Source: Bacteriovoracia bacterium
Lineage (GTDB): Bacteria > Bdellovibrionota > Bacteriovoracia > Bacteriovoracales > Bacteriovoracaceae
NCBI GenBank assembly: GCA_030426585.1
Contig: JAUHYH010000001.1
Coordinates: forward strand, 1-57,954
Direction of reading: 5' to 3'
Length of the DNA stretch: 57,954 nucleotides
Below the pieces are notes generated by a model, which saw only the letters and a program-made list of their open reading frames with translations, searched no databases and was not told where the DNA came from. Positions 20,876-56,559 of the stretch are shown one piece after another; the first letter of the stretch is position 1; the number at the start of each line of letters is the position of its first letter. Both the position numbers and the translations under genes were made by a program.

Positions 20876-20979
20876 GCAGGACTCCTTACACATTTGCTAT
20901 AGAACTATTCGGATGTTCAGGCGGAAAATCTTACCCTCTAAATAACTAGGCAATATCTTCCGGTGGACAGCAATGTCGG

Positions 20980-22632
20980 CTACTTAGAGTCTTGAATTTC
21001 AAAGTATTTGTGAGAGTTGTTGACTAAAGAAGACGGTTTATAGTTTTTGATTTTGTTGTGGTGGAGCATATAGGATTGGGAATAAAACTGCATAATCCAA
21101 ACAACATCACCCAACACTTTTTTCTCAATTTCAGTCATGAGGATCTTTTTTTCAAGATTGTTTTCCAATATTGAAACCTTTTGAATCAACTTATCAACTT
21201 CAGGATTATTGTAATATGAGGAATTTATCCCAGGAGGGTGATTTTCGGAATAAAGTAACTGGAGAATATTTTCACTATCTGGATAATCGAGAGCCCAACC
21301 ATCTTGCCAAAATTGTAATTCACCTTTCTTGGCCTTCTGTAAAAAAGTCGGAAAATTATTAGCAATAACCTTGATATTGATTCCAATTTTAGCAAGTTCA
21401 GCCTTGATGAACTCTGCCCTCTTTAATGTGGAATTATCATTGCTTCGAGTATCAAAATTGAGAACGGGTAGTCCCTTTCCATTGGGATAGCCGGCATCTT
21501 TTAAATATTTTTTCGCTTTTTCAATATTATAACTATAGGGAAGTTCAGAATTTTTATCATAGCCATAAACAGAAGGGTGATAGATTGAATTAGCTTTAAT
21601 TCCCGTATTATTAGTGAATTTTTCGATAAAGCGTGGCTGGTTGGTAGCATGAGCAATGGCAAGACGAAGATTCTTATTTGAACCAACGATTTTATTTTGC
21701 ATATTAAAAGAGATCCACCAATAGGTCATGCTTGGTGTCTTTTTGAGTTCAAAACCCTTGTCTTTAAATTCTTCTTTTAGATTACCATCTTTATCAAGCG
21801 CCACATTAAAGTGCTCAGTTGTCATTCCAAAAAAATCTACCTTATTCTTTAAAAAATTGAGCCAACGAGTTTGAGCTTCTTTCATAATCGGGTATTCAAT
21901 GACTGAAGTTTTTGGAAGATCCGAATTATGATATTTCTTAAAATGAGAAATTTTTATTTTATGAGAACGTTGAATCTTTTCTAGATAATAAGGTCCTGTT
22001 CCAACTTCTTCGTTTGTTAAATTATTATTTAAACCAATGACAACTTCCTCAGGAATAGGAGTTACAAAAGCCATTGTTAGCGCGTAAATCATTTGTGGGT
22101 AGGGCTTTAAAAGCTCAATGCTGAAAGTTTGATCATCGATGACTTTAATCCCTTCAATAGGAATTTCAAGCATTTTACCGAGATCTTCTCCTGCTTCTTC
22201 GCGAAATTGATTTATCCCTTTAACCTTCCCGTCAAATAACCAAAACCCTTGGCCTTTTGTTGGGAGAAAAGCGAGCCTTTTAATTTGTGTAATAAAGTCC
22301 TGAGCTTTAACAATTCGATCTTTGTCTGTGATCAAGGGATGAGGATGATATTTAATCCCTTTTTTTATTTTGATGGTATAAATTAACTGATCTTCTGAAA
22401 CTTTTGGCATTGATTCAGCTAACAAGGGAATGATTTTAGTAGGGTTGTTATAATCGTATTGATAGAGAGTTTCATAAATCTGATAAACCACCTGAAGAGA
22501 AACACTATCAAAAGCGACAGCAGGGTCGAGTGAGGAAATATCACTCGATAAAGGTAAAACAATTGTTTCTTTATTTACTTCGTTTTTGGTACAGGAAAAG
22601 AAGAGCAGAAGTAAAAGAAGAATGTATTTCAA
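20980..22632 (-). CDS. ABC transporter substrate-binding lipoprotein, family 5 (peptide/nickel/opine type)
   Basis: Lipobox LLLFFSC. SLDPAVAFDSVSLQVVYQIYETLYQYD is the family-5 SBP N-terminal pattern. 550 aa. The start is 1 nt after the alaS stop. Confidence 0.8.
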   Translation of the reverse strand: MKYILLLLLLFFSCTKNEVNKETIVLPLSSDISSLDPAVAFDSVSLQVVYQIYETLYQYDYNNPTKIIPLLAESMPKVSEDQLIYTIKIKKGIKYHPHPLITDKDRIVKAQDFITQIKRLAFLPTKGQGFWLFDGKVKGINQFREEAGEDLGKMLEIPIEGIKVIDDQTFSIELLKPYPQMIYALTMAFVTPIPEEVVIGLNNNLTNEEVGTGPYYLEKIQRSHKIKISHFKKYHNSDLPKTSVIEYPIMKEAQTRWLNFLKNKVDFFGMTTEHFNVALDKDGNLKEEFKDKGFELKKTPSMTYWWISFNMQNKIVGSNKNLRLAIAHATNQPRFIEKFTNNTGIKANSIYHPSVYGYDKNSELPYSYNIEKAKKYLKDAGYPNGKGLPVLNFDTRSNDNSTLKRAEFIKAELAKIGINIKVIANNFPTFLQKAKKGELQFWQDGWALDYPDSENILQLLYSENHPPGINSSYYNNPEVDKLIQKVSILENNLEKKILMTEIEKKVLGDVVWIMQFYSQSYMLHHNKIKNYKPSSLVNNSHKYFEIQDSK

Positions 22633-38694: not shown

Positions 38695-38834
38695 CTCCCC
38701 AACTGCCAATTTTTGTTGGCGTTTTGATGATTTGCGAAATTCTAGAGCACCCTTCTCAGTGCAATTCCGAGGAAAAAACTTACAAATGATAAAATAACGT
38801 AAGGGTTTAATTTAATTATAACGACAAGGTATTG

Positions 38835-41800
38835 ATGGTAATTAAAAGGTTTCTAACAGTATCTTTACTTGCGGTGTTAATCGCATGTAACGGCGGGAGT
38901 AATTCCGATTCAGATAATTTTCTGGGAATCGGTGATGACTCCAATGGGAGTGGACCAGGTAACTCAGCCCTCTCTTTTAGTCCATCACTTTTAGACTTTG
39001 GTGACATCGCCCTTTCAAGTTCAACAACAAGCTCTGTGACAGTAACGAATGTCAGTGACCAAGCTGTTTATCTCACAAATATTCAAGGTGAGAATTCTTT
39101 CTTTTCAAGAGTCGGAGGAACCTGTTTTTCTGGTTCAGGCTTACTAGCAGTTGATGCAACCTGTACTGTGACCATTCAATTTACTGCTTTAACGGGTGGT
39201 GATCACGAAGGAATATTTAGTTTTAATTATGGAACGGAACCAGGAGACACTGACTTAACTGCGAATTTGAGTCTTGAGGGGAGTGCAGGAGTTAATCCTC
39301 CAACCAATTACTCGTTGACCAATGTCGCCGGAACAACTGTTACCATCGGTTGGAATGATAACTCAACAAATGAAACAAGTTTTGAAGTGAATCGATGTAC
39401 AGGTACAGTTTGTGCAGCGACATTCACTGCAGACTTTACTGACTTCACAGCGGCTAACGCAACTTCTTATGCGTTCACTGGTTTAACCGAAGGTGAGTAT
39501 TACCGTTTTAGAGTAAGGGCGGTCACGGGAACAAATCAAAGTACATGGTTAGAAGGTTCAGTGATGGTCACATTTGGCGGGATTGCCTCGGTCGATGATA
39601 ACGGAACGGGTATGGCTGATCTTACAAGCCTTGATTGTCGAACGGAAGCCGAAGGAGCTTATGTTTCCTTAAGTTGGAATTCAGTGCCAGATGCAACAAA
39701 TTATTTTATCTATGATGTTACGGGTTCAGGGAATACTTTACTAAAAACGGTTTCAGCACCGGCGACTTCAGCAATTGTTACGGGTTTAACAATCAATACA
39801 GCCTATAACTTATTAGTAACAACAGGAACAAGCACGGGGTTTATTTCAGAAAATGCGACAACGACAGCTTTAACGACCACGGATTATCTTCCTTGTATTG
39901 TTCTTGGAAAAGCAGAGATGACAGGTGGGGCAAATGCAGCGGGATTGCAAAATCCAACAGCCGTTAAAATTTATGGCGGAAAGATGTATCTAGCCGATCG
40001 TAACAACCATAGAGTCCTTATTTGGAATACTCCACCAACTGGCCCAACTGATCTTCCGGATATTGTTTTAGGTCAGGATAATATGTTCTCAAACTACATA
40101 AATAATACACCTGGAAATATAGGAACGGTAAGTGGCCAGTCGATGAACTATCCTTTTGGACTTTGGGTGGGGAGTATTGGTGGAGCTGACCGTCTTCTTG
40201 TCGCAGATTCAAGTAATAATAGAATTCTTGTGTGGACCTCGCTGCCAACAACAAATCATCAAGCAGCTGACCTGGTTCTTGGGCAAGCGAATTTAACAAT
40301 TAACACAGCAGATGGTGGGGATGTTTCTAGAGGTTTACAAAACCCCTATGATGTCTACTCTGATGGAACAAAAATCTATGCGACGGATACCGGTAATCAC
40401 AGAACTCTAATTTGGAATAGTTTTCCTGCTACTAACTTTGCGACTCCGGACGTTTACCTTGGGCAACCTGATAGTACTACAACAAGCAGTGGGTGTGGTG
40501 CTGATGAAATGAATAGTCCTCAAGGCGTTTGGTCAGATGGCTCCCGAATGATGGTCGCTATCTCAAGTTGTCATCGAGTCGCTATTTATGAGTCCATTCC
40601 TGGAACTGGGACTAATCCGAATCCTGATACGATCTTGGGGCAAACGAGTTTAACAGGTAATAGTTCAAGTTCTGCTGCAGATAAAATGAATTCACCTAAA
40701 AAAGTAAGAGTTTTTGGTTCTCAAATTTTTGTTGCTGACTATGGTAGAAATCGAGTTAAGGTTTGGAACTCAATCCCTGCGCCAGGAAATCATGGAGTTG
40801 CTTCCGATTTTGTTATTGGTTTATCTAACACGGGTAATAGTTCTGGAAGCCAACAGAATAGACTTCAAAATCCAACTGATATTGAGATTTCAGGAACGAC
40901 TGTTTACGTGTCTGATTATAACAATTATAGAATTATGGGTTTTAATTCAATTCCAACTGGAGATGGGACGAACGCAGACTTTCTGTTTGGACAAGGTGGA
41001 TTCGATAAAGAAGTTCTTAACTATTACGAAGATACAAATGAAAGATCTTATGATCAACCCCAGGGAATGGCCTATGATGGGACACAGTTTTTTGTTGCTG
41101 ATCCCGACAGGCATAGGGTTCTCGTTTATAATGGAATCCCAAGTTCTTGGAATCAAGATGCTGATTATGTTCTTGGACAAGGTAATTTTAGTCTTCAATC
41201 ATCGGGAAGAAATCAAGCCGCTTTAAGCGCTCCAAGAGGGGTCTGTGTTGGTGGCGGTCAATTGTGGGTGCCAGATTATAATAACAATAGAGTTATGGTT
41301 TTTGATTTACCTATTACTACAAATTCTCCCAATGCAGCAGCAGTCTTAGGACAAACAAGCTGGACGACGAATACGACAGGTACTGGCCTAGATCAACCAA
41401 GAAACCCTATTGCTTGTCATTATGATGGTTCAAAGTTTTTTGTAGTTGATCGAGGTTACGATAGAGTTCTTGTTTGGAATTCTCTTCCGAGCATGGCAAC
41501 AGTGGCAGACAATCCTGCTGCTGATTTTATGTTAGGAACAACAACGGGGAATCAGACGAGTCAAAATCAGCTTTACGATCCTTGGGGAATTTATTCTGAT
41601 GGAACGAAACTTTATGTCGCTGATGCTGGAAATCACCGGGTCATGGTTTGGAATAGTTTGACGGGCGTTGATGATCAAAATGCGGATTTTTATCTTGGTG
41701 GAAATACTAACTGGACCTCAAGGAATGGACTCGTTTCAGCAACTGGTCTTAATTACCCTATCGATATAGTGGGAGATGGAGGGTCAGGGATTTATGTACT

Positions 41801-42023
41801 TGATGCGTCTAATGGTCGAGTGATGAAATTTGATAATCCCGTCGCAACAAATGATTTTGCTTCGACTGTTTATGGTAAGTCGAGCTTTACTGATACAACC
41901 GAACCGGGTAATGAGAGTATGTCACTTTCAACAAGTGCTCGGTCATTATTAAGAATAAATAATAGATTATTCGTTTCTGACCAAGGTCACTCGAGAGTAA
42001 TAGCAACGCCTATTGCGCCTTAA
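38835..42023 (+). CDS. Large surface lipoprotein: beta-sandwich (HYDIN/choice-of-anchor-D-like) + 2 fibronectin type III + 12 NHL repeats (two six-bladed propellers)
   Basis: Lipobox LIAC. LDFGDIAL..VTVTNVSDQAVYL...C..ATCTVTIQF is the beta-sandwich. GWNDNSTNETSFEV..YRFRVRAV is FN3. There are twelve copies of the h-[YF]-V-x-D-x-x-N-x-R-[VI]-h-h-[WF]-N pattern (e.g. MYLADRNNHRVLIWN, LYVADAGNHRVMVWN). Confidence 0.8.
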   Translation: MVIKRFLTVSLLAVLIACNGGSNSDSDNFLGIGDDSNGSGPGNSALSFSPSLLDFGDIALSSSTTSSVTVTNVSDQAVYLTNIQGENSFFSRVGGTCFSGSGLLAVDATCTVTIQFTALTGGDHEGIFSFNYGTEPGDTDLTANLSLEGSAGVNPPTNYSLTNVAGTTVTIGWNDNSTNETSFEVNRCTGTVCAATFTADFTDFTAANATSYAFTGLTEGEYYRFRVRAVTGTNQSTWLEGSVMVTFGGIASVDDNGTGMADLTSLDCRTEAEGAYVSLSWNSVPDATNYFIYDVTGSGNTLLKTVSAPATSAIVTGLTINTAYNLLVTTGTSTGFISENATTTALTTTDYLPCIVLGKAEMTGGANAAGLQNPTAVKIYGGKMYLADRNNHRVLIWNTPPTGPTDLPDIVLGQDNMFSNYINNTPGNIGTVSGQSMNYPFGLWVGSIGGADRLLVADSSNNRILVWTSLPTTNHQAADLVLGQANLTINTADGGDVSRGLQNPYDVYSDGTKIYATDTGNHRTLIWNSFPATNFATPDVYLGQPDSTTTSSGCGADEMNSPQGVWSDGSRMMVAISSCHRVAIYESIPGTGTNPNPDTILGQTSLTGNSSSSAADKMNSPKKVRVFGSQIFVADYGRNRVKVWNSIPAPGNHGVASDFVIGLSNTGNSSGSQQNRLQNPTDIEISGTTVYVSDYNNYRIMGFNSIPTGDGTNADFLFGQGGFDKEVLNYYEDTNERSYDQPQGMAYDGTQFFVADPDRHRVLVYNGIPSSWNQDADYVLGQGNFSLQSSGRNQAALSAPRGVCVGGGQLWVPDYNNNRVMVFDLPITTNSPNAAAVLGQTSWTTNTTGTGLDQPRNPIACHYDGSKFFVVDRGYDRVLVWNSLPSMATVADNPAADFMLGTTTGNQTSQNQLYDPWGIYSDGTKLYVADAGNHRVMVWNSLTGVDDQNADFYLGGNTNWTSRNGLVSATGLNYPIDIVGDGGSGIYVLDASNGRVMKFDNPVATNDFASTVYGKSSFTDTTEPGNESMSLSTSARSLLRINNRLFVSDQGHSRVIATPIAP

Positions 42024-42613
42024 AGTTTTATATCAATTCCAAAAAGTAGGCTTAGACTTGTGAGGGTAGAGTTATTCTGCATGGTCTCATAATTGATCCC
42101 AGCAAATGCGGTCGAAAAATTAAAGGGGTATTTATAATAAGTACCAAGACCAAATCCCGTGAATGGGACTGTGCTTGAAGAGGTATTTATGTAGTACTGT
42201 GAGCCAATTGCCTGTAAGCACCATGACGGGGTTTCAGCATCAACACTATTAAGAATTGTTTTCGAATTAAGATTAATTTTTGAAGTCTTTTTAAGAAGTG
42301 AGCCTGTTAAAGCGTAAATATATCTAAAGTTAAAAGCCGAGCCTGAACTTTCAGATCCCAGATTCATTTGTCGGAAGCTCACTCCTAGTGCTGATTTTTG
42401 ATTAATCGCATATTGGGCTAAAAGTTCTAAACCAGGACCAGATAAACTTTGACCAGTACCTGAGTTGGAAAGTTGGGTATAGGCCAAGCTTGGCTGAAGC
42501 GAAAGTTTAGAAACTTGAGTAGCTGTATTAACGATCTCTTCAGAGAACGCTGACATAGTAAAACTTACACTTAAAAGGCATAAAAGAGTCTTAAGCATAG
42601 ATATATTATACAC
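42020..42613 (-). CDS. Small outer-membrane beta-barrel protein (OmpA-like/porin-family barrel, ~8 strands)
   Basis: Signal peptide LLCLLSVSFTMSAFS and alternating amphipathic strands. The C-terminal strand ends LLFGIDIKL, so it lacks a terminal aromatic residue. Confidence 0.5.
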   Translation of the reverse strand: MYNISMLKTLLCLLSVSFTMSAFSEEIVNTATQVSKLSLQPSLAYTQLSNSGTGQSLSGPGLELLAQYAINQKSALGVSFRQMNLGSESSGSAFNFRYIYALTGSLLKKTSKINLNSKTILNSVDAETPSWCLQAIGSQYYINTSSSTVPFTGFGLGTYYKYPFNFSTAFAGINYETMQNNSTLTSLSLLFGIDIKL

Positions 42614-42700
42614 AGACTCTAACTAAAGAGAATTTTTCCTTATGTTTTTCTACGCTTTACTGAGAGATAATAATTATTGAGGTGGGATAAATCGATAAAT

Positions 42701-44968
42701 ATGGTCAAGAAAAAAGAAAAAGATATTAGGAAGCTCGAAGTAAAAGAACATGTTCTTAAGCATAAGGAAATCTATGCGAAGAAACTAAAAGAACTTGTTG
42801 AAGAAAATGAGAGAGAGCAGAAAGAATATCAATCGAAGCTTTCAAAGTTAGAATCTGACCTTGTTGATAAAAAACATATAATTCAGTGTTTAACCCAAGA
42901 TCTTAAAAAAGTAGAAATTCAAAAAGAAAGCAAACTTGCTTCTGTATCTGACTTAAAAAGAAAAAAAGCCACACTTTTAGATGAAGTAAACCAATTTGAA
43001 AAAGAGATAGCAGAAACAACGAAGTCAATTAAGTTGGCAGATGAAGAAGAAGTGAAACTTCAGGGCGAAATCAGTACTCTAAAACAACAGAAAGAAGAAA
43101 AAGAAATTCTTGTTGAAGAATTGGCTAATAAAAAGAATCAGGTTCTAAGTGTTGTTGATAAGCAAAAAGAAGTATTAGCGCTGGCCAATCATGACTTTAC
43201 AACAATAGCCCAAAGGAAGTCTGTTTTAGCAGAAGAATTAGTTGATCTAAAAAATAAAGAAGCAAGTTTTTTGGAAGAAATAAAAAAACTTGAAAAAGAA
43301 ATTACTGAAACCTCTCAATCAATAGAGTTAGCGACTGAAGAAGAAGTTAAGTTAAAAGATCGAATCTCTGAGTTACAAAATATAAATGAGAAGAAGTTGG
43401 CAGCAATTTCAGAGTTAACAAAAAAGAAAGATCAAGTTTTAAACCTTGTTAATAAATATAAAGAAAGTTTGGAGAGTTTAAACAAGGGGTTTGAATCTTC
43501 AGCCGAGAAAGAAGCCGTTTTAAATGAAGAGATATCTTCGCTGAATAAAGAAAAATTAGAACTAGAAGCAAAGATTAAAGAGTATGATGTTCTCGCTCCA
43601 CTTTCGAAGAAGGGGCTCTTGGAAGAGGTTGAGAGTTTAAAGACACTTGAAAGTTCCGTGGAAGCTCTTAGGACTGAATTAAAAGAAAAAGAATCTGGCA
43701 TTATAAACTTAGTAGAAGAAAATAACCGTATTTCAAATGAAACGTTGAAGGTTACCAGTCAACTCAGAGAGTTCACTCTTGAAAAAATAAACCTTGATAA
43801 ACAAGAAGCAAATATTAGAAGCCAGATGACAAACTCCCTGGAGAGTCACAAAAGCTTAGTTACTCAAAGGGATAAAATCAAGAAAGCGTCCAAAGAAGCA
43901 GGAGACCGAATATCGCGCTCATTAGAACTTGTTTCAAGAGCAGATGAAAAGCTAAAATCAGATAGAGAGAATTTATCGGTCTTGATGAGTGAATATAAAA
44001 ATTTAAAAGATCACGAAATAAGTCTTAGATCTGAAATCGCAACAAAAAAATCAGAAATTCTAAAAAATACCAAGGACATTGAAAGTTACAAAGAAGATAT
44101 TTCCTCTATGACAGTTTCACTTTCAGGCTCAAAGAAGACTTTAATAGAGGTTTCTGAAGAGCTCTCAAAATTATTAAAAGAGGTGAAATTTCTTTCACAA
44201 GAGAAGTCAGACCTTCAAAAAAATTGTAGTAGTACAAAAGAAAAACTTATAAAAGAAACTGAAGAACTTAAAATAACGTCAGAAGAAAGAACTTCATTGG
44301 AAAAAGAGATTTCTTTACTGAATTCTCAATTGAAGTCGAATAAAAAAGGAATCTCATTAACTGAGAAGAACCTTGAAAAAGAAACAAAGCTAGTCGACTC
44401 ATTAAAGTCTGACTTAAAAGCCTTGAAGTCTGAAAACAAAATCCTAGAGTCCAGACTTGATTCTCTTCAGGATCAATATCATAAAGTGAACGAAGAGCGA
44501 AAAGATCTCGATCTTCAAAGAAAAGAACAACAAACTCTGAAAAGAACTCTTGAAAGAAATCAGAATAAACTTAAAGCAGATATAGAGTTGTTTTTAACTA
44601 AGATGAAGGACCTCTCGAGAGATGATGCACAGGTTTCATTCAAAGAACTCAAAAGCTATGTTCATGGAGTTGTTGACCTTAATGAACGTGCTGTTGATTT
44701 AATAGGAAAAAGTCCTAAAGCAAATGAATTATTAAAAACTCTTTTCAGAGTAATAATCTCTGAAAAAATTTATTGTAAGTCGCTCACACTCCAGGCCGTG
44801 AGTAACCAAGTATGTAAATTGGTTATTAAAGATCCTTTTGATTCCGTTGAGTCTTGTAGTGATGTCCTTAGCCAATATGGAGTTTCAAACCTAGCAATCA
44901 GAGGCAATGACCTTGAAATTCTTATTAATATCAATGGGTTAGAAAAGCAGCAAAACTTTCCTCTCTGA
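42701..44968 (+). CDS. Long coiled-coil protein (~755 aa) with a non-coiled C-terminal ~130-aa domain
   Basis: Almost continuous heptad-like E/K/L-rich sequence. No TM or signal peptide. The ATG at 42701 is preferred to the TTG at 42677. Confidence 0.6.
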   Translation: MVKKKEKDIRKLEVKEHVLKHKEIYAKKLKELVEENEREQKEYQSKLSKLESDLVDKKHIIQCLTQDLKKVEIQKESKLASVSDLKRKKATLLDEVNQFEKEIAETTKSIKLADEEEVKLQGEISTLKQQKEEKEILVEELANKKNQVLSVVDKQKEVLALANHDFTTIAQRKSVLAEELVDLKNKEASFLEEIKKLEKEITETSQSIELATEEEVKLKDRISELQNINEKKLAAISELTKKKDQVLNLVNKYKESLESLNKGFESSAEKEAVLNEEISSLNKEKLELEAKIKEYDVLAPLSKKGLLEEVESLKTLESSVEALRTELKEKESGIINLVEENNRISNETLKVTSQLREFTLEKINLDKQEANIRSQMTNSLESHKSLVTQRDKIKKASKEAGDRISRSLELVSRADEKLKSDRENLSVLMSEYKNLKDHEISLRSEIATKKSEILKNTKDIESYKEDISSMTVSLSGSKKTLIEVSEELSKLLKEVKFLSQEKSDLQKNCSSTKEKLIKETEELKITSEERTSLEKEISLLNSQLKSNKKGISLTEKNLEKETKLVDSLKSDLKALKSENKILESRLDSLQDQYHKVNEERKDLDLQRKEQQTLKRTLERNQNKLKADIELFLTKMKDLSRDDAQVSFKELKSYVHGVVDLNERAVDLIGKSPKANELLKTLFRVIISEKIYCKSLTLQAVSNQVCKLVIKDPFDSVESCSDVLSQYGVSNLAIRGNDLEILININGLEKQQNFPL
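42974..43567 (+). repeat. Diverged tandem duplication (2 x 297 nt = 2 x 99 aa) inside the coiled-coil gene
   Basis: LLDEVNQFEKEIAETTKSIKLADEEEVKLQGEISTL..ANKKNQVLSVVDKQKE.. aligns colinearly with LEEIKKLEKEITETSQSIELATEEEVKLKDRISEL..TKKKDQVLNLVNKYKE.. Confidence 0.6.
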
Positions 44969-45012
44969 GGTTTGCCCTCATTTCCAGCATTCAGGTTTCG
45001 ATAAGTTCTGTG

Positions 45013-45576
45013 ATGAAAAATCTATATTTATTTTTTTGCTTTTATTTGGTTGCTTGCGCTCAAGTCCAGACTGAAAAACCTTACATCATTGTAAAGCATG
45101 ATGCTGAGATTGAAGTCGATGGAGTTATTAAAAAGGTTAAGGCTAACGAAAAAATTGAAGTTGAAGACGAAAAGACTATAAAAGTTTCGGCGGATGGTAA
45201 GGCTTCACTCGTAATTTTTAATACTAAGGGTTTAAAAAATAATGAAGTAAATCTACCAGACCTTTCTGAGACAAGCATGAATGAAAAGCTTATCCAAAGT
45301 TTGAATAAAAGATTAGACCAGTTGATGCCTCAGATTCAAGAGGTTCAACAAATGATTCTCAATGAAGATTATAATAATGCTATTTCTAAAGTTAGAGATC
45401 TAAAGAATATTTATCCAGGTTTAGCATACCTTTCGTTTTTAGAGAGTGCTTGTTATAAAGTTCAAGGAAGGGATTCTGAAGCCCTGAGAGTTCTTAATGA
45501 GGGACTTTCTATTAATCCAGAAAGCACTGAAGGAAAATCACTATATAGATCTCTTAGTGGTAGGGAGGTTCGATGA
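45013..45576 (+). CDS. Lipoprotein with a C-terminal TPR/SEL1-like repeat, first gene of the stator operon
   Basis: Lipobox YLVAC. C-terminal NEDYNNAISKVRDLKNIYPGLAYLSFLESACYKVQGRDSEALRVLNEGLSINPES. Its stop overlaps the motA-like start (ATGA). Confidence 0.55.
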   Translation: MKNLYLFFCFYLVACAQVQTEKPYIIVKHDAEIEVDGVIKKVKANEKIEVEDEKTIKVSADGKASLVIFNTKGLKNNEVNLPDLSETSMNEKLIQSLNKRLDQLMPQIQEVQQMILNEDYNNAISKVRDLKNIYPGLAYLSFLESACYKVQGRDSEALRVLNEGLSINPESTEGKSLYRSLSGREVR

Positions 45577-46295
45577 AATCACTACCAATAGGAATTCTAG
45601 GCGTCATTATTGTTATTGCTTTGAGTATGGATACCGCGAACTCAGCAATTTATATGAGTGCTCACAGCTTTTATATTGTTTTCTTAGGAACAGCAGCAAT
45701 CTTTCTTTTTGCCAATCCTTTTAAGAATATTATTACCACCTTTGTTGCTGTAAAAAGTTTATTTGAAAAAGATAAAACTCCAGAAGAGGTGAGAAGTCTT
45801 GTTGAAGAGATTGCTAAAAATAAAGGCTTAGAAAAAGATCACAAAATACCACTGGTAGACTATGCCCTTAAGCTTTGGAAACAAGGTGTTGAGCCTGACA
45901 TTGTTGAAAGTTTGCTTATTGAAAAAAATGAAGACGTTGTTTCTACGACTGAAATTCCTGTAAGTGTACTTAAAAACCTTTCTAAATACCCTCCAGCATT
46001 GGGTATGACAGGAACGGTTATGGGTATGATTAGTTTATTTGCAAACCTTAATAGTGATAATAAAGCCGCTATTGGAGAGGCTCTTTCTGTTGCCATGACT
46101 GCAACCTTTTATGGTTTGATGTACGCGAACTTCATTTTGTTACCACTTGCAGACAGACTCCATATTCGTCATAAGGCCATTACAAATAGAAACGATCTTG
46201 TTTTAAACGCTCTTTTAAAAATTAATAGATCTGAGCCTTTGAGCTTTATAGAGAACCTTAACCTCGAGCAATCTTATTACGAGCAGGCAGGTTAA
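45573..46295 (+). CDS. motA: MotA/PomA-family proton (or sodium) channel stator subunit
   Basis: 240 aa with a 2 TM + ~100-aa cytoplasmic loop + 2 TM topology. PPALGMTGTVMGMI and TATFYGLMYANFILLPLADRL match the MotA/ExbB/TolQ channel helices. Confidence 0.75.
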   Translation: MKSLPIGILGVIIVIALSMDTANSAIYMSAHSFYIVFLGTAAIFLFANPFKNIITTFVAVKSLFEKDKTPEEVRSLVEEIAKNKGLEKDHKIPLVDYALKLWKQGVEPDIVESLLIEKNEDVVSTTEIPVSVLKNLSKYPPALGMTGTVMGMISLFANLNSDNKAAIGEALSVAMTATFYGLMYANFILLPLADRLHIRHKAITNRNDLVLNALLKINRSEPLSFIENLNLEQSYYEQAG

Positions 46296-46296
46296 G

Positions 46297-46908
46297 ATGG
46301 CTAGAAAAACGTATTATTACCATGATTCAGAAGGTTGGGCGGTCTCTTATTCAGACCTTTTAATGGTTTTAATGTCGTTCTTTATTATTTATTTCAATAT
46401 CGATGGTGGGGATAATACCCCTCTTCAAAAACTAGCTTTTGAGTTGATGGAAGATAAAAGCCTAAAAGATCAGAGTTTTATTGTGAATCCTTCGAGAGAG
46501 GTTGCTGGCAATAGTTTGACCGAAGGTCTTAATATTGGTTTTAATAATAAGCCTACTGAAAAACCAATCTATAAAGAGTTTATAATTGATCTTCCTCCAA
46601 ATATATATTCGGTTGGTAATTATGAATTATCCAATCAAGCGAAAGAAAAACTAAACAAAGTCTTTAACTTGATTGAAAAATATAAAGCTGATCTTGATAT
46701 TTATTTTATCGGTCATACCGATTCTCAAAAGTTTAAAAAAAATAAAGAAATTATCAATAGTAATCTCATTCTTTCTAGTATGAGATCAGCGAGGGCGGTA
46801 GAGTACGCGATCAAAAATGGGTTTGATGAAAATCAAGTTTATGTCCAGGGATTAAAAGGACGCCCAAGAGATACGAGATCCTTAAGTCTAAGGTTGGTGG
46901 CACGATGA
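46297..46908 (+). CDS. motB: MotB/PomB-family stator subunit with an OmpA-like peptidoglycan-binding C-terminus
   Basis: GWAVSYSDLLMVLMSFFIIYF contains the invariant channel Asp. The C-terminal IGHTDS...N..LS..RA..V pattern is OmpA-like. Confidence 0.75.
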   Translation: MARKTYYYHDSEGWAVSYSDLLMVLMSFFIIYFNIDGGDNTPLQKLAFELMEDKSLKDQSFIVNPSREVAGNSLTEGLNIGFNNKPTEKPIYKEFIIDLPPNIYSVGNYELSNQAKEKLNKVFNLIEKYKADLDIYFIGHTDSQKFKKNKEIINSNLILSSMRSARAVEYAIKNGFDENQVYVQGLKGRPRDTRSLSLRLVAR

Positions 46909-48338
46909 TGAAAATGATAATCTTATTTGCTTTTGCATTATCAATAAAAGGGTTTAGCTTTGATCAACTTTCAGAAAAGGAAGCACTTAGAGGTGAAATC
47001 ACTGATAGAATTACCAATGTCATAAAAGTTTTTGATTCTGAAGCAAGAGTCGATGTCAGTATTCAGTTATCAAAAAGGAATAAAAAAATTAAAGTTAATA
47101 ATCCTTTTCTGTTATCGCTTGATCAAGAAAATGGGGCCAGTGAATATTATATTTTAAAACTCTCTGCAACAATATTTACTCGGTTTTCAACTTCAGAGAT
47201 ACCAACTGAGGTGACAGAGAGAATTAATGCTATTAGTTCTGAATATTCTAGAAACAAAGAAGTATTTTATTCTGAGCTTCAAGGTTCTACTGTAAGTCCT
47301 TCTTTCATGAGTCAAACTTCACCTTTTGAGTTCTTTGTCGCTTTTATATTATTATTTGCCTGCTCATTTGGAGTGTTTGTTTTTTATCAATCCAAGAAGC
47401 AAGCTTCAAGTAATATTGGGAGCATTGTTGAAGAAGGAATTAAGAAAATTTCAAACTCGCTTGATTCATTGGGAACCATCGCTGGTGGAAATGTCGAAAC
47501 GACGCCATTTAATATTGAGGTTAACTCGGGTAAAGAGTCCTTTCTTTTAGATGTTTCACTAGACTCCTTAGAAGAGGTCCTAATGGACTGTTATTGGTGT
47601 GAAGAGGATCGGTATGGTGCCTATCTGTGGGAAAGACTGGATGTTCTTAGAAAGGGGCAATTAATAGAGAAAAATAAGAGAATGGCAGATTATGGTGCTT
47701 TTCTTCAATCTGTTGAACCTGAGAATAAAAAGTTTGTGACAGATTCTTATTACCTTTCTCCTTTATCTCTAGAATCGATTGATAATGAATCACTTACGAA
47801 GTTAGTTGAAAAGTACAACTCTGTCTTTCATCTTCTTCCTAAAATCAGAATTGACCACCTTGACCTATCAGCAATTAAAAAGAAAGAACTTTATTTAAAG
47901 AAATACTCTAAGGAAGATACTCAATTCGAAATTCAAAATATTAATTGGGATGAGTACAAAACTACAATTTCACGTCCATTAGATAATGTACATGTGTTTA
48001 GTTTTAAAGATTTTGATGAAGAAGAAGAGTTTTTTAAAGAAAATAGTCATGATGTGTCCCTTATTCATGCATTTCCCTCGCTTTCTTGGTTAACTGTTTT
48101 AAGAGAAGAAGATATTACTGAAATTTTATCAAAATTTACAGCTAAACAACTGGCGATTGCTTGGCACGCTCCAAGTTCTACTTTGGAAAAATTGGAAGAA
48201 TGTCTTCCAGAAGAAAAACTCCATCTCTTAAAGACTTATCAGGAAAGTTTAACTTCCAATAGAAACAATTCTGTTTATCAACAGATTATTGCCGAAGCTA
48301 TTGTAAGACTTGAGAAAAGACTAACATTGGCTGCATAG
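46905..48338 (+). CDS. Bitopic membrane protein of unknown function: periplasmic FliF/YscJ ring-motif-like segment, one TM, and a cytoplasmic domain with a FliG-C-like end
   Basis: N-terminal hydrophobic leader, then ALRGEITDRITNVIKVFDSEARVDVSIQL (compare FliF ALEGELARTIETL..V..ARVHL). TM FFVAFILLFACSFGVFVFY. C-terminal VLREEDITEILSKFTAKQLAIAWHAPSSTLEKLEECLPEEKLHLLKTY...IIAEAIVRLEKR (compare the FliG_C pattern L..VD...L..LL.......LA.ALKGAS.EL.EK...NMS.R....L.EE.E......I...IR.LE). Overlaps motB by 4 nt. Confidence 0.45.
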   Translation: MMKMIILFAFALSIKGFSFDQLSEKEALRGEITDRITNVIKVFDSEARVDVSIQLSKRNKKIKVNNPFLLSLDQENGASEYYILKLSATIFTRFSTSEIPTEVTERINAISSEYSRNKEVFYSELQGSTVSPSFMSQTSPFEFFVAFILLFACSFGVFVFYQSKKQASSNIGSIVEEGIKKISNSLDSLGTIAGGNVETTPFNIEVNSGKESFLLDVSLDSLEEVLMDCYWCEEDRYGAYLWERLDVLRKGQLIEKNKRMADYGAFLQSVEPENKKFVTDSYYLSPLSLESIDNESLTKLVEKYNSVFHLLPKIRIDHLDLSAIKKKELYLKKYSKEDTQFEIQNINWDEYKTTISRPLDNVHVFSFKDFDEEEEFFKENSHDVSLIHAFPSLSWLTVLREEDITEILSKFTAKQLAIAWHAPSSTLEKLEECLPEEKLHLLKTYQESLTSNRNNSVYQQIIAEAIVRLEKRLTLAA

Positions 48339-48365
48339 TAAATATCAAATTAAATTATAAAGATA

Positions 48366-48396
48366 AAAAAACCCGGAACTAAGTCCCGGGTTTTTC
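48366..48396. terminator. Bidirectional terminator after the stator operon
   Basis: AAAAAAACCCGG-(AACTAAGTC)-CCGGGTTTTT hairpin with flanking A and T runs, lying between convergent genes. Confidence 0.7.
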
Positions 48397-48398
48397 TT

Positions 48399-48920
48399 TT
48401 AGGAAGCGTTCTGTAGCTTCGCTTGTATTTTTTGAATAAGCCTGAAATAGCTTGGAGCTTTTTCTCTAACCTCTTCAACAACAATGATGTCTGAGGTTTT
48501 TTCAGCCATTGGATTTACATACATTTGAGGTCTAAAAAATACGGTATAAACCTTTCTGTAGAAGTATGTAAGTATCCCAAGTGGGATGATCGCTGCGACG
48601 AGAGTTAATCCTCCGATCCATGGTGCAACCATAAAGTTTGCGATAATCATGAACGTCACAATTGGATAAACAAATAGTAACGCTGTTGGTACAAGCAAGT
48701 TGTTGATCATTGCAATACCGATTAAAATCATGGACACATCAAAAAACATAGATGCTGGTCCCGTTGGTTCCAATCCAAATACTGAGAAGTATTCAGTTTC
48801 AAAGCCAGCAAAAGGAACAATATCAAAGTGCGGTGAAAAACCCGCTAATAGAAAAAATGATCCTACAAAAAGCCTTGAAAGGATAACCCACCAGCTATCT
48901 CCTGATTTAAAAAATTCCAT
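48399..48920 (-). CDS. Hypothetical integral membrane protein (about 4 TM)
   Basis: 173 aa with four hydrophobic helices. No recognised motif. Confidence 0.5.
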   Translation of the reverse strand: MEFFKSGDSWWVILSRLFVGSFFLLAGFSPHFDIVPFAGFETEYFSVFGLEPTGPASMFFDVSMILIGIAMINNLLVPTALLFVYPIVTFMIIANFMVAPWIGGLTLVAAIIPLGILTYFYRKVYTVFFRPQMYVNPMAEKTSDIIVVEEVREKAPSYFRLIQKIQAKLQNAS

Positions 48921-49007: not shown

Positions 49008-49883
49008 TTAGATACTGTCTATGCCGTTGATCCATAGGTTATCAATTCCATGATCATTTTTAAAGAGGCCTAAATAAGAAATTTGATTGGGCTCAGTAGG
49101 GAATTCATTAGCAGCAGTCCAAAGGTTTCCGTGATTTCGAACTTGGACGAATAACTCAGGGGGAATAAAATGTTCATGAATGATATTTTTTAAGTCCTGA
49201 CCTTTATTGATTAAAAAATAAGAAAAGATTTGATCATTTTTTTTATAAATATAAAGATCTGCTGATTCGACTTTGAACCACTCCTCCCAGTCTCTTTCAG
49301 TTCTTTGAAACATTGTGAGTTTTTTTGATTTTTCCAAATAGAGTTCTTTGATCTTATCGAATTCTTTAGGGGAGAGACTCTTTTTGTCTTTTAAGAAAAA
49401 TTCTGAAGAAGCATTTTCTTGAAAGTATTCATATTGTTGGTTTTTAAGTTCAAATCCGAATTTATAGTAAATCTCAGGAGCTCCACTCCAGAGAATTTGT
49501 ATGGTTTCTTTATTTTCTTTTGCTTGTAGACTTTCAAAAAACTTTCGAAAAAGACCTTTTCCTTGAAATTCTTTTTTTACGACAATGCCTCCCCACAAAG
49601 AAGCATCATATGATTGAGTATTTTTCTTGAGTATTCGCTTTTTTTGGCCAATATGAGCGATAACTTCACTGTTTTTATTCAAGAGGACATGGCAATTCTG
49701 GAAGTTATGCTTATTGAATAGGGGATAAAAATCAGTTTTGAAGGAATATTGGGGCAGATAGTTGAACTCTTTCTCAATTATGTCCAAAGCCTGACTAACG
49801 AGATCAGGTTTGTGCTCTAAATTACTGATAGTAAAATCATTAAAATCCATAAGATAGATATTAACAGGGAAAGAAGTTCCCAT
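49008..49883 (-). CDS. GNAT-family N-acetyltransferase-like protein
   Basis: WGGIVVKKEFQGKGLFRKFFESL resembles GNAT motif A (Q/R-x-x-G-x-G/A). 291 aa. Divergent from flagellin 1. Confidence 0.55.
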   Translation of the reverse strand: MGTSFPVNIYLMDFNDFTISNLEHKPDLVSQALDIIEKEFNYLPQYSFKTDFYPLFNKHNFQNCHVLLNKNSEVIAHIGQKKRILKKNTQSYDASLWGGIVVKKEFQGKGLFRKFFESLQAKENKETIQILWSGAPEIYYKFGFELKNQQYEYFQENASSEFFLKDKKSLSPKEFDKIKELYLEKSKKLTMFQRTERDWEEWFKVESADLYIYKKNDQIFSYFLINKGQDLKNIIHEHFIPPELFVQVRNHGNLWTAANEFPTEPNQISYLGLFKNDHGIDNLWINGIDSI

Positions 49884-49996: not shown

Positions 49997-50845
49997 ATGG
50001 GATTACGTATCAACACCAACGTAGCGTCTGTGAACGCACAACGGAACCTCCGAACGACACAGAGAGGTCTCCATAAGACTCTCGAGCAATTGTCTTCGGG
50101 TTTTCGTATCAATCGTGCTGGTGACGATGCCGCTGGTTTGGCCATTTCCGAGAATTTGAGAGCTCAAATTCGAGGTCTAGGGCAAGCCGAAAGAAACGCA
50201 AGTGACGGTATCTCACTAGTGCAGATCGCAGAAGGTGCTCTTGCCGAATCATCTAACATTCTAATCAGACTTAGAGAGTTAGCAGTGCAAGCAGCGTCAG
50301 ACACGATCGGACCAACAGAGAGAAAGTTTCTCAACGTTGAATTCGAGCAGTTGATTTCCGAAATGGATCGGATCGCCAACTCAACAGAATTTAACAACGT
50401 TAAACTTCTCAACGGAACAGGAGCTGTACTCGATATCCAAATCGGAACGAGAAACGATCCTATCGCCGACAGATTAACATTTGATGCTTCGGCAGCGGAT
50501 GTTAACGTCGCGGCTTTAGGACTGAATCTCGCTTCAGTGGCGGATAAAATTTCAGCTCAGAACTCGCTCGCAGCGATTGACCAAGCAATCATTACAGTTT
50601 CTGGGGTAAGGGCCGATTTTGGTGCTCTTCAGAACCGATTGCAATCAACGATCAATAACATTTTGATCAGTATTGAGAACATGTCGGCTGCAAACTCTCG
50701 GGTTCGAGATGCAGACATCGCGAAAGCGACGGCTGAATTGACGAAAAACAACGTTCTAATGCAAGCAGGTACTTCGGTACTAGCGCAAGCGAACCGAGTG
50801 ACCTCGTCTGCGATTGGACTAATCCAATCCGCTTCGAATATCTAA
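49997..50845 (+). CDS. fliC: Flagellin (short, ~282 aa, D0/D1 only), GC-rich paralogue
   Basis: MGLRINTNVASVNAQRNL, AGDDAAGLAISE, LGALQNRL and LAQAN are present. The start is at 49997 behind AGGAGG; the longer ORF-track start at 49967 is rejected. Confidence 0.92.
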   Translation: MGLRINTNVASVNAQRNLRTTQRGLHKTLEQLSSGFRINRAGDDAAGLAISENLRAQIRGLGQAERNASDGISLVQIAEGALAESSNILIRLRELAVQAASDTIGPTERKFLNVEFEQLISEMDRIANSTEFNNVKLLNGTGAVLDIQIGTRNDPIADRLTFDASAADVNVAALGLNLASVADKISAQNSLAAIDQAIITVSGVRADFGALQNRLQSTINNILISIENMSAANSRVRDADIAKATAELTKNNVLMQAGTSVLAQANRVTSSAIGLIQSASNI

Positions 50846-50875
50846 GCACTAATGAGTTAAGTCATTAGTGCTTAG
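50842..50875 (+). terminator. Perfect 14-bp stem-loop overlapping the flagellin-1 stop codon (no T-tract)
   Basis: CTAAGCACTAATGA-GTTAAG-TCATTAGTGCTTAG. The TAA stop (50843-50845) lies inside the 5' arm. Confidence 0.45.
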
Positions 50876-51094
50876 AAGGCTCGATGAGCTGAGTAGAGCG
50901 AAACGTTGAGTTGTATTTTGTTGAGTTGAACTTTTTGAAAGTTAACGATCCTGCATAAGTTAGATGGAGAGGTGCGTCCGCTCCGGTAACAATGAAGTTG
51001 TAGAGAGTGAAATCTCTATAGGTGTAGAAGTATGTGCAAAAAACTTTTTATTAACAAAATGATCATGAAGATCGCTAAGCATAGGAGGTGCGCA

Positions 51095-51112
51095 ATGAAT
51101 AGCGGAGATTAA
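51095..51112 (+). other. Five-codon upstream mini-ORF (MNSGD*) in the flagellin-2 leader
   Basis: AGGAGG (51083-51088) + TGCGCA + ATG copies the flagellin-1 SD/spacer/start (AGGAGG-ATGCGCA-ATG). The frame stops at TAA 51110-51112, 2 nt before the flagellin-2 ATG. Confidence 0.3.
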
Positions 51113-51114
51113 TC

Positions 51115-51948
51115 ATGGGACTAAGAATTAACACCAATGTGCCTTCAATTACGGCACAGCGGAACTTAAAGATGACAAAACGGAGTCTTGATAGCAATTA
51201 CAGCAGACTTGCATCAGGCTCTAGGATTTCAAAAGCAGCAGATGATGCTGCAGGGTTAGCAATTAGTGAGAAACTCAAAGCCCAAATTCGAAGTTTACGA
51301 CAAGCCAGAAGAAACACTGAAGACGGTATTTCGATGGTTCAAGTCGCCGAAGGTGGGATGAATGAAGTTTCAGGGATGTTAATTAGGATGAGAGAGTTGG
51401 CGATTCAAGCAGCTTCAGACACAATTGGACCAGACGAAAGACGGTTCACTGACCTAGAATTTCAAGCTTTGAAAGCTGAAATTGAAAGGGTTGCACAGTC
51501 TGGAGAATACAATGGGAACAAGCTCCTTAATGGAGCAGGTGGACTCATTGAAGTGCAAATTGGAACGCGTAATAATCCATTCGAAGATAGAATTAGTTAC
51601 GACGCTTCACTTACCGACGTTACTTTAGGAGCACTCGGTATTACAGGTGACGAAGTGACTAGTAAAGAAGGAGCTCAAAGCGCACTAACCAGTCTTGATA
51701 ATGCGATATTATCAGTCAACGGTTCACGTGCAGAACTTGGAGCGCTTCAGAATCGAATGGTAACGATTACAAACACTCTCGACATTAACGACGAGAACTT
51801 CAGTGCTGCAAACTCACGGATTCGAGATGTTGATATTGCTTCCGAATCAGCTGACCTTACTAAAAACAATATCCTAGTACAGTCCGGAGTATCTGTACTA
51901 GCCCAAGCCAACAATACTTCGAACCTTGCACTGAAACTACTAGGCTAA
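51115..51948 (+). CDS. fliC: Flagellin (short, 277 aa)
   Basis: MGLRINTNVPSITAQRNL, AADDAAGLAISE, LGALQNRM and LAQANNTSNLALKLLG are present. Confidence 0.93.
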   Translation: MGLRINTNVPSITAQRNLKMTKRSLDSNYSRLASGSRISKAADDAAGLAISEKLKAQIRSLRQARRNTEDGISMVQVAEGGMNEVSGMLIRMRELAIQAASDTIGPDERRFTDLEFQALKAEIERVAQSGEYNGNKLLNGAGGLIEVQIGTRNNPFEDRISYDASLTDVTLGALGITGDEVTSKEGAQSALTSLDNAILSVNGSRAELGALQNRMVTITNTLDINDENFSAANSRIRDVDIASESADLTKNNILVQSGVSVLAQANNTSNLALKLLG

Positions 51949-51980
51949 TAGAGAGATCATTCACTTCAATCTCTACAATA

Positions 51981-52013
51981 CCCCGGGGCGGAATCACCCC
52001 GGGGTTTTTTTTT
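51981..52013 (+). terminator. Rho-independent terminator of flagellin 2
   Basis: CCCCGGGG-(8 nt)-CCCCGGGG stem followed by T9. Confidence 0.85.
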
Positions 52014-55731: not shown

Positions 55732-56559
55732 ATGAATTCACGAGCTTTTACACTGTCTGTCCTCATTGCGGGAATCGCCATGTTTATGGCTTGGTCTTAT
55801 ATTGACTCGGAGGAATCTGCCCTCATAAAAAAATATGGGAACTCTCAACCTGTCGTTGTTGCAAAACAAGACATACGAGAACTTGAACTTATTGATGATA
55901 CAAAAGTTCAGGTTATTACAGTTCCTCAAAAATTTATTCAACCCGGTCATATTAAAAGGATTGAAGAAATTTACAATACGATTGCTGCCACTCCGATTAA
56001 AAAGGGAGAGCAGATTACAAAACCAAGAGTAACCCAACCGGGATCACGAACAGGTCTCGCGAACCAGGTGAGCGTCGGTAAAAGAGCTTATGCAATCAAT
56101 GTAAGTGATTCTCAAGCTGTTGGAAAACTTATTAAACCAGGTGATAGGATCGATATTCTTTCGGTTATTAACTATGCTCCAGGGCAACTCGAAAAATTAA
56201 AAGTAAAAACTGTTCTTCAAGATGTCTTGGTTCTTTCAACAGGACTTAAGGTTACCAATGAACTGCCACTTGCTTATGTTGAAAGGAACGAAGAACTGAG
56301 AAGGCTTAATTTAAACCGTCACACTGATTACAACACAGTGACAGTTGAGCTTAGTCCAGCTGAAGTTCAAAGGATGATCTATATTGTAAATGCAGGTTCT
56401 CGGATTCATCTCAGCTTAAGAAATAATGATGATAAAACCATCGAAAGACTTCCCTCTACACATTTATTTGATGTGTTGGGTGAAGATCAGATGGAGGCTA
56501 GAAAATACTACAAACAAAAAGAGCTAGAAACTCAAAGAAGACGAGGAAACTCGCGATAA
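55732..56559 (+). CDS. cpaB: Flp pilus assembly protein CpaB/RcpC
   Basis: N-terminal TM, a SAF-like segment (VVVAKQDIRELELID...ATPIKKGEQIT) and the RcpC motif GKRAYAINVSD..GKLIKPGDRIDIL. Confidence 0.75.
   Translation: MNSRAFTLSVLIAGIAMFMAWSYIDSEESALIKKYGNSQPVVVAKQDIRELELIDDTKVQVITVPQKFIQPGHIKRIEEIYNTIAATPIKKGEQITKPRVTQPGSRTGLANQVSVGKRAYAINVSDSQAVGKLIKPGDRIDILSVINYAPGQLEKLKVKTVLQDVLVLSTGLKVTNELPLAYVERNEELRRLNLNRHTDYNTVTVELSPAEVQRMIYIVNAGSRIHLSLRNNDDKTIERLPSTHLFDVLGEDQMEARKYYKQKELETQRRRGNSR

Follow-up and report, generated by a model that had tools for sequence, protein, structure and literature searches.

Ion-driven motors of the 5:2 type power the flagellum, Tol-Pal, TonB-dependent uptake, gliding and the type IX secretion system of Bacteroidetes, and Zorya defence, each with its own coupling partner. 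Here we describe four + strand open reading frames (ORFs), g1 to g4, which span 45010-48338 in the ORF list of a 57,954-nt stretch of DNA from Bacteriovoracia bacterium (assembly GCA_030426585.1, contig JAUHYH010000001.1, positions 1-57,954, forward strand; hereafter the window, meaning the whole stretch that was analysed), and which encode a MotA-like and a MotB-like protein between an exported protein and a membrane protein with a predicted FliG-like domain. With a probability of roughly 45%, judged from sequences and structural models, the four genes would form the part at the inner membrane of a conserved and larger system that spans the envelope of Bdellovibrionota, comprising a flagellum-independent stator, a FliG-like partner and a coupled surface protein. 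The module is a candidate ion-driven motor of the 5:2 type in which both the coupling partner and the output would be new, a description of which we infer whatever goes beyond sequence and predicted structure. In literature searches, neither the gene set of the module nor a FliG-like partner encoded together with a MotAB that is stand-alone or non-flagellar was found described, and the MotA-FliG torque interface was found described for the flagellum only. The genes and the parts of g4 are the following (aa, amino acids or residue positions; TM, transmembrane; RBM, ring-building motif; pLDDT, predicted local distance difference test).

45010-45576, + strand: g1, exported protein of 188 aa with an LVAC lipobox, beta-rich in its N-terminal half and TPR-like in its C-terminal half
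45573-46295, + strand: g2, MotA-like stator A subunit of 240 aa with four TM helices and a cytoplasmic loop of PomA size (PF01618)
46297-46908, + strand: g3, MotB-like stator B subunit of 203 aa that carries the channel Asp, a plug and a peptidoglycan-binding domain of OmpA type
46905-48338, + strand: g4, bitopic membrane protein of 477 aa from an uncharacterised family of about 375 clusters, without Pfam or NCBIfam match
46959-47276, + strand: periplasmic domain of g4 (aa 19-124), RBM-like, alpha-beta-beta-alpha-beta in the AlphaFold2 model, pLDDT about 85 in the structured parts
47322-47399, + strand: TM helix of g4 (aa 140-165) in the AlphaFold2 model, followed by a low-confidence linker of about 45 aa (pLDDT below 50, aa 161-211)
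47991-48278, + strand: FliG_C-like region of g4 (aa 363-458) by Foldseek and hhalign, including the torque-helix equivalent LPEEKLHLLKTY (aa 434-445)

With the flagellar stator-rotor (PomAB or MotAB with FliG and FliF) the module shares the four-TM MotA with prolines in TM3 and TM4, the MotB Asp, the plug and the OmpA-like anchor; g4 likewise has a FliG_C-like region, basic at the positions of FliG R281 and R297, and the predicted topology of its periplasmic domain is that of an RBM in which, as in RBM3 of FliF, an insertion separates beta1 from beta2. In contrast to the flagellar rotor, g4 would put rotor-like functions into one polypeptide of 477 aa with a single small periplasmic domain. 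FliG is soluble and docks on FliF through FliG_N, whereas g4 is membrane-anchored, and no EHPQR motif for FliM binding was seen in it, the FliG alignment upstream of aa 363 carrying no confidence. The module also comes without linked genes for FliM/FliN, export gate, rod or hook, and with a constant linkage to genes for an outer-membrane-protein-like protein and a giant NHL/Ig protein instead.

The layout of g4 has precedents in fusions of FliF and FliG, of which that of Chlamydiaceae (Bergeron 2016) comes closest among published architectures. In it, a FliG_M-like domain is joined to an RBM region and a TM helix, and a stator is lacking; engineered fusions form rings, those of Salmonella supporting rotation (PMC4768692); engineered fusions are on record for both Salmonella and Vibrio (PMC11481574). 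As in g4, a signal sequence, a reduced RBM-type region and a TM helix precede a cytosolic FliG-like domain, so that architectures of the g4 type do exist. The chlamydial protein differs in that its domain is FliG_M-like and not FliG_C-like, in that it has no MotAB partner, and in that it is thought to be injectisome-related, whereas g4 adjoins motAB and belongs to Bdellovibrionota.

The Agl-Glt machinery of Myxococcus and Bdellovibrio, found in related predators, also ties a motor of the MotA/TolQ family to periplasmic TPR proteins, outer-membrane beta-barrels and a surface adhesin. It differs in its TolR-like AglQ/S and its TonB-like coupling, the pair of the module being of flagellar type and the candidate coupling protein FliG-like. 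Ion-driven motors have been classed as flagellar (FIT) or generic (GIT) ion transporters; AglR falls among the generic ones, and AglQ/S, being TolR-like, have neither a plug nor a peptidoglycan-binding domain (PMC12505986). With its plug and OmpA anchor, g3 sets the pair apart from this anchorless kind, and g2 scores 99 bits with PomA versus 19 with TolQ, so the Agl/Glt analogy offered in the original prediction was not sustained; family scans detected no Glt homologues or Glt-type families among the module neighbours. Zorya (ZorAB) is likewise a MotAB-like pair outside the flagellum. It was rejected as a candidate, as PADLOC gave no ZorA match and a ZorB match to the OmpA region only (27 bits or less), and neither a long MotA tail nor ZorC/D/E-type genes were found.

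Stator genes g2 and g3 and the membrane protein g4

The g2 protein matches MotA_ExbB (PF01618) in Pfam with E=4e-19, and among NCBIfam models scores 99.3 bits with PomA, 74 with MotA and 58 with MotP, versus 19 with TolQ and 12 with ExbB; these scores stay far below all flagellar equivalog cut-offs (237-394 bits, 341 for PomA). In hhalign, g2 aligned to E. coli MotA with a probability of 97.5%, and the TM3 and TM4 prolines P173 and P222 fell on P141 and P191. Position 84, the equivalent of R90 in E. coli MotA, is K or R in 92% of 120 relatives, and the loop has conserved acids at 103 and 107. The relatives form a tight family of 233-247 aa, carry no NCBI name but 'MotA/TolQ/ExbB proton channel family protein', and have as their named sources metagenome-assembled genomes (MAGs) of Halobacteriovoraceae, Bdellovibrionia and Bdellovibrionales.

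For g3, matches above cut-off were obtained with MotB_plug (30.8 bits, cut-off 24) and OmpA (31.5 bits, cut-off 27.2), while the best NCBIfam match was MotD at 41.8 bits versus a cut-off of 283. The channel Asp D20 (in WAVSYSDLL, nt 46354-46356) and the motif GHTD...N..LS..R are invariant among orthologues. By sequence, then, g2 and g3 are predicted to be a complete, peptidoglycan-anchored stator of flagellar type, if a divergent one, in agreement with the original prediction of a MotA-like and MotB-like pair with an invariant Asp in SYSDLL and an OmpA-like end.

No Pfam, NCBIfam or PADLOC family matched g4 above threshold. An index-free profile search recovered 375 representative clusters in Bdellovibrionota, nearly all 470-520 aa long, of which 301 reached E<=1e-30, with every named member a 'hypothetical protein'; a word-indexed search had suggested a tiny family of 8 proteins, which this overturned. 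No cultured isolate was found among the named relatives. Among carriers, long assemblies are available as OZ244226.1 (3.05 Mb), GCA_020635135.1 (contig JACKAJ010000015.1) and JGI Ga0620599_000003. The AlphaFold2 model shows a signal-like N-terminal helix, the periplasmic domain, the TM helix, a disordered linker and an all-helical cytoplasmic domain (aa 213-476), and in Foldseek searches of the PDB with the whole model, FliF MS-ring structures and FliG ranked best.

When the cytoplasmic domain was modelled (pLDDT 86.5) and searched separately, all of the top 16 Foldseek matches were FliG, from five organisms, and below rank 16 the probability fell to about 0.02; the E-values given by Foldseek were weak. 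The isolated C-terminal domain of FliG (1qc7_A) superimposed with a root-mean-square deviation of 3.3 Å over 77 columns at 28% identity, and a MotAB-bound FliG fragment (8ucs_H) with a template modelling score of 0.58 in Foldseek. At the profile level, hmmsearch of a 144-sequence g4 profile against the PDB put T. maritima FliG in four of the six top places, although E was about 0.2 and so not significant. With hhalign, a g4 profile of 146 sequences was compared with a FliG profile of 11 diverse sequences from E. coli and from plasmid and chromid records. The two aligned over 96 columns with a score of 38.0 (P=3.7e-4), pairing g4 363-458 with residues 201-302 of E. coli FliG, which comprise ARM_C and the torque helix; two reversed profiles scored 13.6-13.8 and thirty block-shuffled ones 12.5-17.7. 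Comparison of g4 with the single E. coli FliG or FliF sequence in hhalign was not significant. Four independent routes, Foldseek with the whole model, Foldseek with the domain, hmmsearch of the PDB and hhalign, thus agree in pointing to the same region of g4 as FliG-like.

At g4 positions 437 and 453, the equivalents of FliG R281 and R297, 90% and 98% of the 146 family members have a basic residue, and position 438 (K438) is basic in 100%; the full charged set of FliG (K264, R281, D288, D289, R297) is not kept. On these alignments, g2 and g4 would keep conserved and potentially complementary charges, but in a pattern unlike the flagellar one. A near-invariant motif, D-C-Y-W-x3-D-x-Y-A-x3-W (aa 228-242), opens the cytoplasmic domain (D228 99%, Y230 99%, W231 100%, D235 98%, W242 99% of the same sequences), for which no counterpart was identified in FliG.

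The periplasmic domain of g4, in which a conserved LPGT loop joins beta1 and beta2, was matched by Foldseek to FliF RBM3 and PrgK (E 2e-3 to 0.1, probability 0.97-1.0). Restricted to FliF RBM3, hhalign gave a score of 19.9 (P=0.009) with one of 30 shuffles higher, which is suggestive only; the alignment is collinear and sets LPGT of g4 on VPGA of FliF. From sequence profiles and models together, we read g4 as the combination of an RBM-like fold with a FliG_C-like domain, and as an orthologue of neither FliF nor FliG. The original prediction had listed g4 as an unknown 477-aa membrane protein, correctly as to the membrane and the lack of a curated family, and had overlooked both domains.

Conservation of the module and the genes linked to it

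Relatives of the module were compared at 13 informative loci including the window (31-57% GC content, g4 identity down to about 20%); L006, on a short contig, was left out. In a scan of reference genomes, a 7-sequence g4 alignment confirmed two loci, the 144-sequence alignment being too diverse for this use. Upstream of g1 in the window lie three further genes that recur at other loci.

38832-42023, + strand: lipoprotein of 1063 aa with an LIAC lipobox and NHL, fn3 and Ig domains (hereafter the giant surface protein)
42020-42613, - strand: small exported protein of 197 aa with a signal peptide, orthologue of the gene g5 that directly follows g4 in the other clade
42677-44968, + strand: cytoplasmic coiled-coil protein of 763 aa with coiled-coil-type matches only (SMC, JetC)

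The order MotA-MotB-g4 is kept in all 13 loci, mostly with overlapping junctions, and a relative of g1 is present in 12 of them; in eleven it immediately precedes motA, and in L024 it has moved elsewhere. A small exported protein of 190-216 aa was confirmed by BLAST in 12 loci; L024 has a 192-aa candidate, which is unverified. Next to the module, or no more than about 4 kb from it, every locus encodes a giant repeat protein that is exported, of the NHL/fn3/Ig type in the window and in L001, L004, L005, L009, L022, L024, L025 and L027, and of other types in L002 (Invasin_D3/Filamin) and L023 (GLUG); no Pfam match is recorded for the giant of L026 (8745 aa) or for that of L010 (6025 aa), the latter having just a weak tblastn match to the 1063-aa protein of the window. 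The flanks of the module are otherwise unrelated, as with rpsU-dnaG-rpoD in L002. Tight gene packing by itself is common among operons, and this conserved set is the stronger evidence. The original prediction of a translationally coupled stator pair with two dedicated, uncharacterised envelope partners is upheld in that the set is conserved as a unit, and the gene-neighbourhood comparison it had proposed across Bdellovibrio-like genomes finds that unit usually outside flagellar clusters.

The giant surface protein of the window combines an Ig domain of HYDIN/VesB type, fn3 and many NHL repeats (Pfam NHL 102.8 bits). Orthologues occupy the same relative slot in L001, L004, L025 and L027 (55-76% identity), and the giants that follow g4 in L009 (E 6.6e-114) and L024 (E 6.6e-127) share 31-32% identity with it over an aligned length of about 1080 aa. 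The small protein at 42020-42613 matches g5 in tblastn (L026 3.5e-8, L023 5.7e-7, L010 1e-3), the gene that in one clade overlaps the end of g4. Its relatives end in a C-terminal aromatic or hydrophobic residue (...GLLYRF), the L025 orthologue has a faint Pfam match to OMP_b-brl, and we take the protein to be probably an outer-membrane beta-barrel. The coiled-coil protein belongs to the clade of the window, where long proteins fill the same slot in L001 (571 aa, 26% identity), L004 (571 aa), L025 (649 aa) and L027 (1053 aa); the other clade is without it.

The g1 protein is a lipoprotein in the clade of the window, and tblastn links its family across both clades. Searches of Pfam, NCBIfam and PADLOC gave nothing above threshold for it, the Pfam matches to TPR_19, TPR_2 and TPR_14 all being sub-threshold, and no Sel1 match was obtained. 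Where the original prediction had a TPR/SEL1-like lipoprotein, the LVAC lipobox therefore stands, the TPR assignment remains below threshold and the SEL1 one falls, and with it the likeness to MotX. A T-ring protein of the MotX/MotY kind was also rejected on the side of MotY, to which just a weak match of g3 was seen, confined to the OmpA domain (E=0.018).

Two loci have neighbours of separate interest. In L025, a Halobacteriovoraceae MAG, a fliL-fliM-fliN-fliO-fliP operon lies at 17684-21470, 6 kb downstream of g4, with genes for an aminotransferase, an amidase, SpoIID, DsbA and HU in between. In L023 (metagenome assembly GCA_900143125.1, contig FRDC01000361.1), a gene for a PilZ-domain protein of the c-di-GMP-binding (cyclic di-GMP) type is found at 12685-13407 on the minus strand, directly past g5, with a response-regulator gene next to it, and may hint at c-di-GMP control.

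Proposed mechanism and competing explanations

In the mechanism that we propose, ion flow through MotB would turn the MotA pentamer, and the MotA loop (K/R84, D/E103, D/E107) would push the torque-helix equivalent of g4 (E436, K437, K438, R453) as MotA does on FliG. The g4 protein might be a single lever or a small ring held by its RBM-like domain, a ring being in keeping with the usual role of RBM domains and with the rings that engineered FliF-FliG fusions form. It would carry the movement across the inner membrane to its own periplasmic domain, from which g1 and the small outer-membrane protein could pass it on to the giant surface protein. The output would likely serve motility on surfaces or the handling of prey, with an adhesin being moved, tensioned or exposed. 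If true, the MotA-FliG interface would here have its first candidate role outside the flagellum, and the module would be a very small system for the study of torque transfer and could explain a surface or prey-contact function in Bdellovibrio-like predators; it would also bear on the origin of the rotor-stator contact, as a relic or as a re-use.

Several results weigh against this proposal. The FliG similarity of g4 is remote, with statistical support for the last 95 or so residues alone; none of 7 g4 family members matched FliG_N, FliG_M or FliG_C of Pfam at E<=1, and the acidic pair D288/D289 of FliG is replaced by Ser/Thr and Tyr. The AlphaFold2 models of g4 were built from an alignment of 7 sequences (pLDDT 72 for the whole protein). 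OsmC/Ohr folds fit the periplasmic domain about equally well in Foldseek, and in hhalign the FliF profile scored 24.4 versus 20.7-22.3 for reversed profiles, which is not significant. Alignment places E98 of MotA unreliably in the g2 loop. In L023, MotB and g4 are read as one protein of 698 aa (10001-12097) with two strong hydrophobic segments (the MotB TM and the g4 TM), a coherent topology and a weakened former g4 signal peptide; this single observation is either a genuine Rosetta-stone fusion or the product of an indel at the ATGA junction. If real, g4 would not be free to rotate relative to an anchored stator there, and the fusion would argue for a lever or a static complex and not for a free rotor. 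Lastly, flagellar genes lie near the module in 3 of the 13 loci, namely flagellins at 1.6 kb in the window and L001, and fliL-fliP in L025.

The most far-reaching form of the idea is that g4 is a miniature rotor resembling MS- and C-ring, spun by its own MotAB without flagellum, rod or export apparatus, with rotation passed through g1 and the barrel to the NHL/Ig adhesin. We hold this to be doubtful, though a prospect to be taken seriously; such a rotor, if true, would make the system a new kind of rotary machine at the surface of predatory bacteria, one that either came from the flagellar motor by reduction or has survived as kin of the pre-flagellar rotor-stator pair.

Somewhat less probable still, and in our estimate unlikely, is a flagellar accessory set, with this MotAB as an alternative or the only flagellar stator and g1 and g4 as species-specific proteins for scaffolding or docking, with a role like that of MotX/MotY, FliL or PflA/PflB, the FliG-like domain helping to place stators at the C ring or to activate them in advance. 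The flagellar neighbours just mentioned would suit this, as would a MotA and MotB with all flagellar-type hallmarks and PomA as closest match. In Bdellovibrio and like organisms, moreover, the 1-4 stator pairs of a genome stand apart from flagellar clusters, and a published screen counted a single motAB pair in two B. stolpii isolates, which speaks against an additional pair. A MAG labelled Bacteriovorax stolpii (L009, contig CAMCVE010000023.1) carries the module, at a locus of 56.5% GC. The GC content of cultured B. stolpii is closer to 42%; this label may therefore be loose, which bears on any comparison with the stator counts in print.

Against a flagellar accessory role stand the absence of flagellar linkage from most of the 13 loci, at which the linkage to the giant and the small outer-membrane protein is constant, the 99 bits of g2 versus an equivalog cut-off of 341, the generic name given by the Prokaryotic Genome Annotation Pipeline (PGAP), and the size of the genes. 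The motAB clusters of the module measure 1336-1465 bp, smaller than the 1671 bp of the sole annotated flagellar motAB cluster of Halobacteriovorax marinus SJ; among those of Bdellovibrio HD100, motAB2 and motAB3 (1844 and 1793 bp) are excluded from the module family by their larger size, which is no ground for excluding motAB1 (1553 bp). A second, membrane-tethered FliG-like domain would in addition have no known place in the flagellar motor. Generic naming, low equivalog scores, few flagellar neighbours and cluster size are indirect evidence that the motAB of the module may be an additional, specialised pair. The original prediction had noted no flagellar basal-body, switch or export genes adjacent to the operon, which fits the lack of such linkage at most loci, and, among the points on which it had made itself depend, orthologues turned out not to be always embedded in flagellar regulons, and g1 and g4 gave no match to families such as MotX, MotY or FliL in Pfam and NCBIfam searches.

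The FliG_C-like domain could alternatively hold the MotA pentamer in a defined state and transmit no work, as a decoy that sequesters stators, a brake that gates ion flow, or a sensor that passes on to the cytoplasm what the giant perceives of envelope or surface contact. We regard this as distinctly unlikely. The apparent fusion in L023 would suit a static complex better than a rotor, a PilZ-domain gene adjoins the module there, and the missing acidic pair makes the interface unlike a working torque interface; yet the fusion is one observation in one metagenome assembly that one indel in the ATGA could create, an anchored, plug-bearing stator that has kept its channel Asp over about 375 clusters is a sign that ion-coupled work is under selection, and the constant co-inheritance with an outer-membrane protein and a surface giant suggests an outward output.

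Least probable of all is an energiser in the style of Tol or Ton, in which the stator would drive g4 through contacts of TM helices, as in ExbBD-TonB or TolQR-TolA, and the resemblance to FliG would be coincidental, the helical cytoplasmic domain being a generic ARM-like module with another role, such as binding the coiled-coil protein. The logic is indeed that of Tol-Pal and ExbBD-TonB, with a 5:2-type motor, a bitopic transducer, a TPR protein (CpoB), a beta-propeller protein (TolB), an OmpA-type anchor and service to the outer membrane, and the FliG similarity is remote and supported in the C-terminal region alone; but MotA of the module is nearer to PomA than to TolQ or ExbB by the NCBIfam scores above, TonB and TolA have no large FliG-like cytoplasmic domain, the top Foldseek matches are all FliG, MotAB-bound FliG_C included, with no other ARM-type protein among them, and where R281 and R297 of FliG align, g4 has basic residues in 90-98% of its family.

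Operon layout and surroundings in the window

Direct reading of the junctions and the ORF list gave an ATGA overlap (cgATGAaa) between g1 and g2 at 45573, a 1-nt gap at 46296 between g2 and g3 (TAA-g-ATG, 46293-46299), and a second ATGA overlap (cgATGAtg) between g3 and g4 at 46905. Downstream of g4, the following features were located.

48365-48397, no single strand: intrinsic bidirectional terminator, a 15-pair stem with 6 G-C pairs, an A-run before and a T-run after it
48399-48920, - strand: gene for a 173-aa membrane protein, between g4 and the flagellins
49008-49883, - strand: gene for a GNAT acetyltransferase, between g4 and the flagellins
49967 and 51115 (starts): two flagellin genes, about 1.6 kb from g4

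Since an A-run precedes the stem and a T-run follows it, the stem can act as a terminator on both strands, and it shuts the operon off against the convergent gene. The coordinates of the four genes, their overlaps and gap, the strong bidirectional terminator, and flagellins 1.6 kb away behind two minus-strand genes were all reproduced exactly as first predicted. The unit of four genes was too short in one direction: the four belong together, and the conserved unit also takes in the genes at 38832-42613. The coiled-coil ORF, likewise missed in the original prediction, stops 41 nt 5' of g1 with no terminator between them and is probably co-transcribed with g1.

A scan of the window for sigma-70-like promoters found such sites rarer than in shuffled sequence, and a sigma-28 consensus scan gave no guidance, its consensus being unmatched even by the window's own flagellin genes. 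Within the 3' part of the coiled-coil ORF, an A/T-rich hairpin at 44742-44766 has terminator-like flanks on both strands; it is weak, with 3 G-C pairs, and probably non-functional. The flagellin region, at 50001-52000, is compositionally distinct, with a GC fraction of 0.445 versus about 0.35 around it.

The remainder of the window is ordinary chromosome of about 36% GC, with genes for EF-P, AccC, TamB/Omp85, UvrA, RecG and UbiB. For UvrA, there seem to be two ORFs that overlap in place of one, at 13410-14804 (with matches to UvrA DNA-binding and ABC) and 14716-15921 (ABC match); a frameshift, a pseudogene or an assembly error within 13410-15921 is possible. Pilus systems lie at a distance on both flanks: the left edge of the window (136-1540) encodes a C-terminal secretin fragment followed by a multi-TPR protein, and on the right side a gene of the RcpC/CpaB type, from a Flp pilus, is located at 55732-56559.

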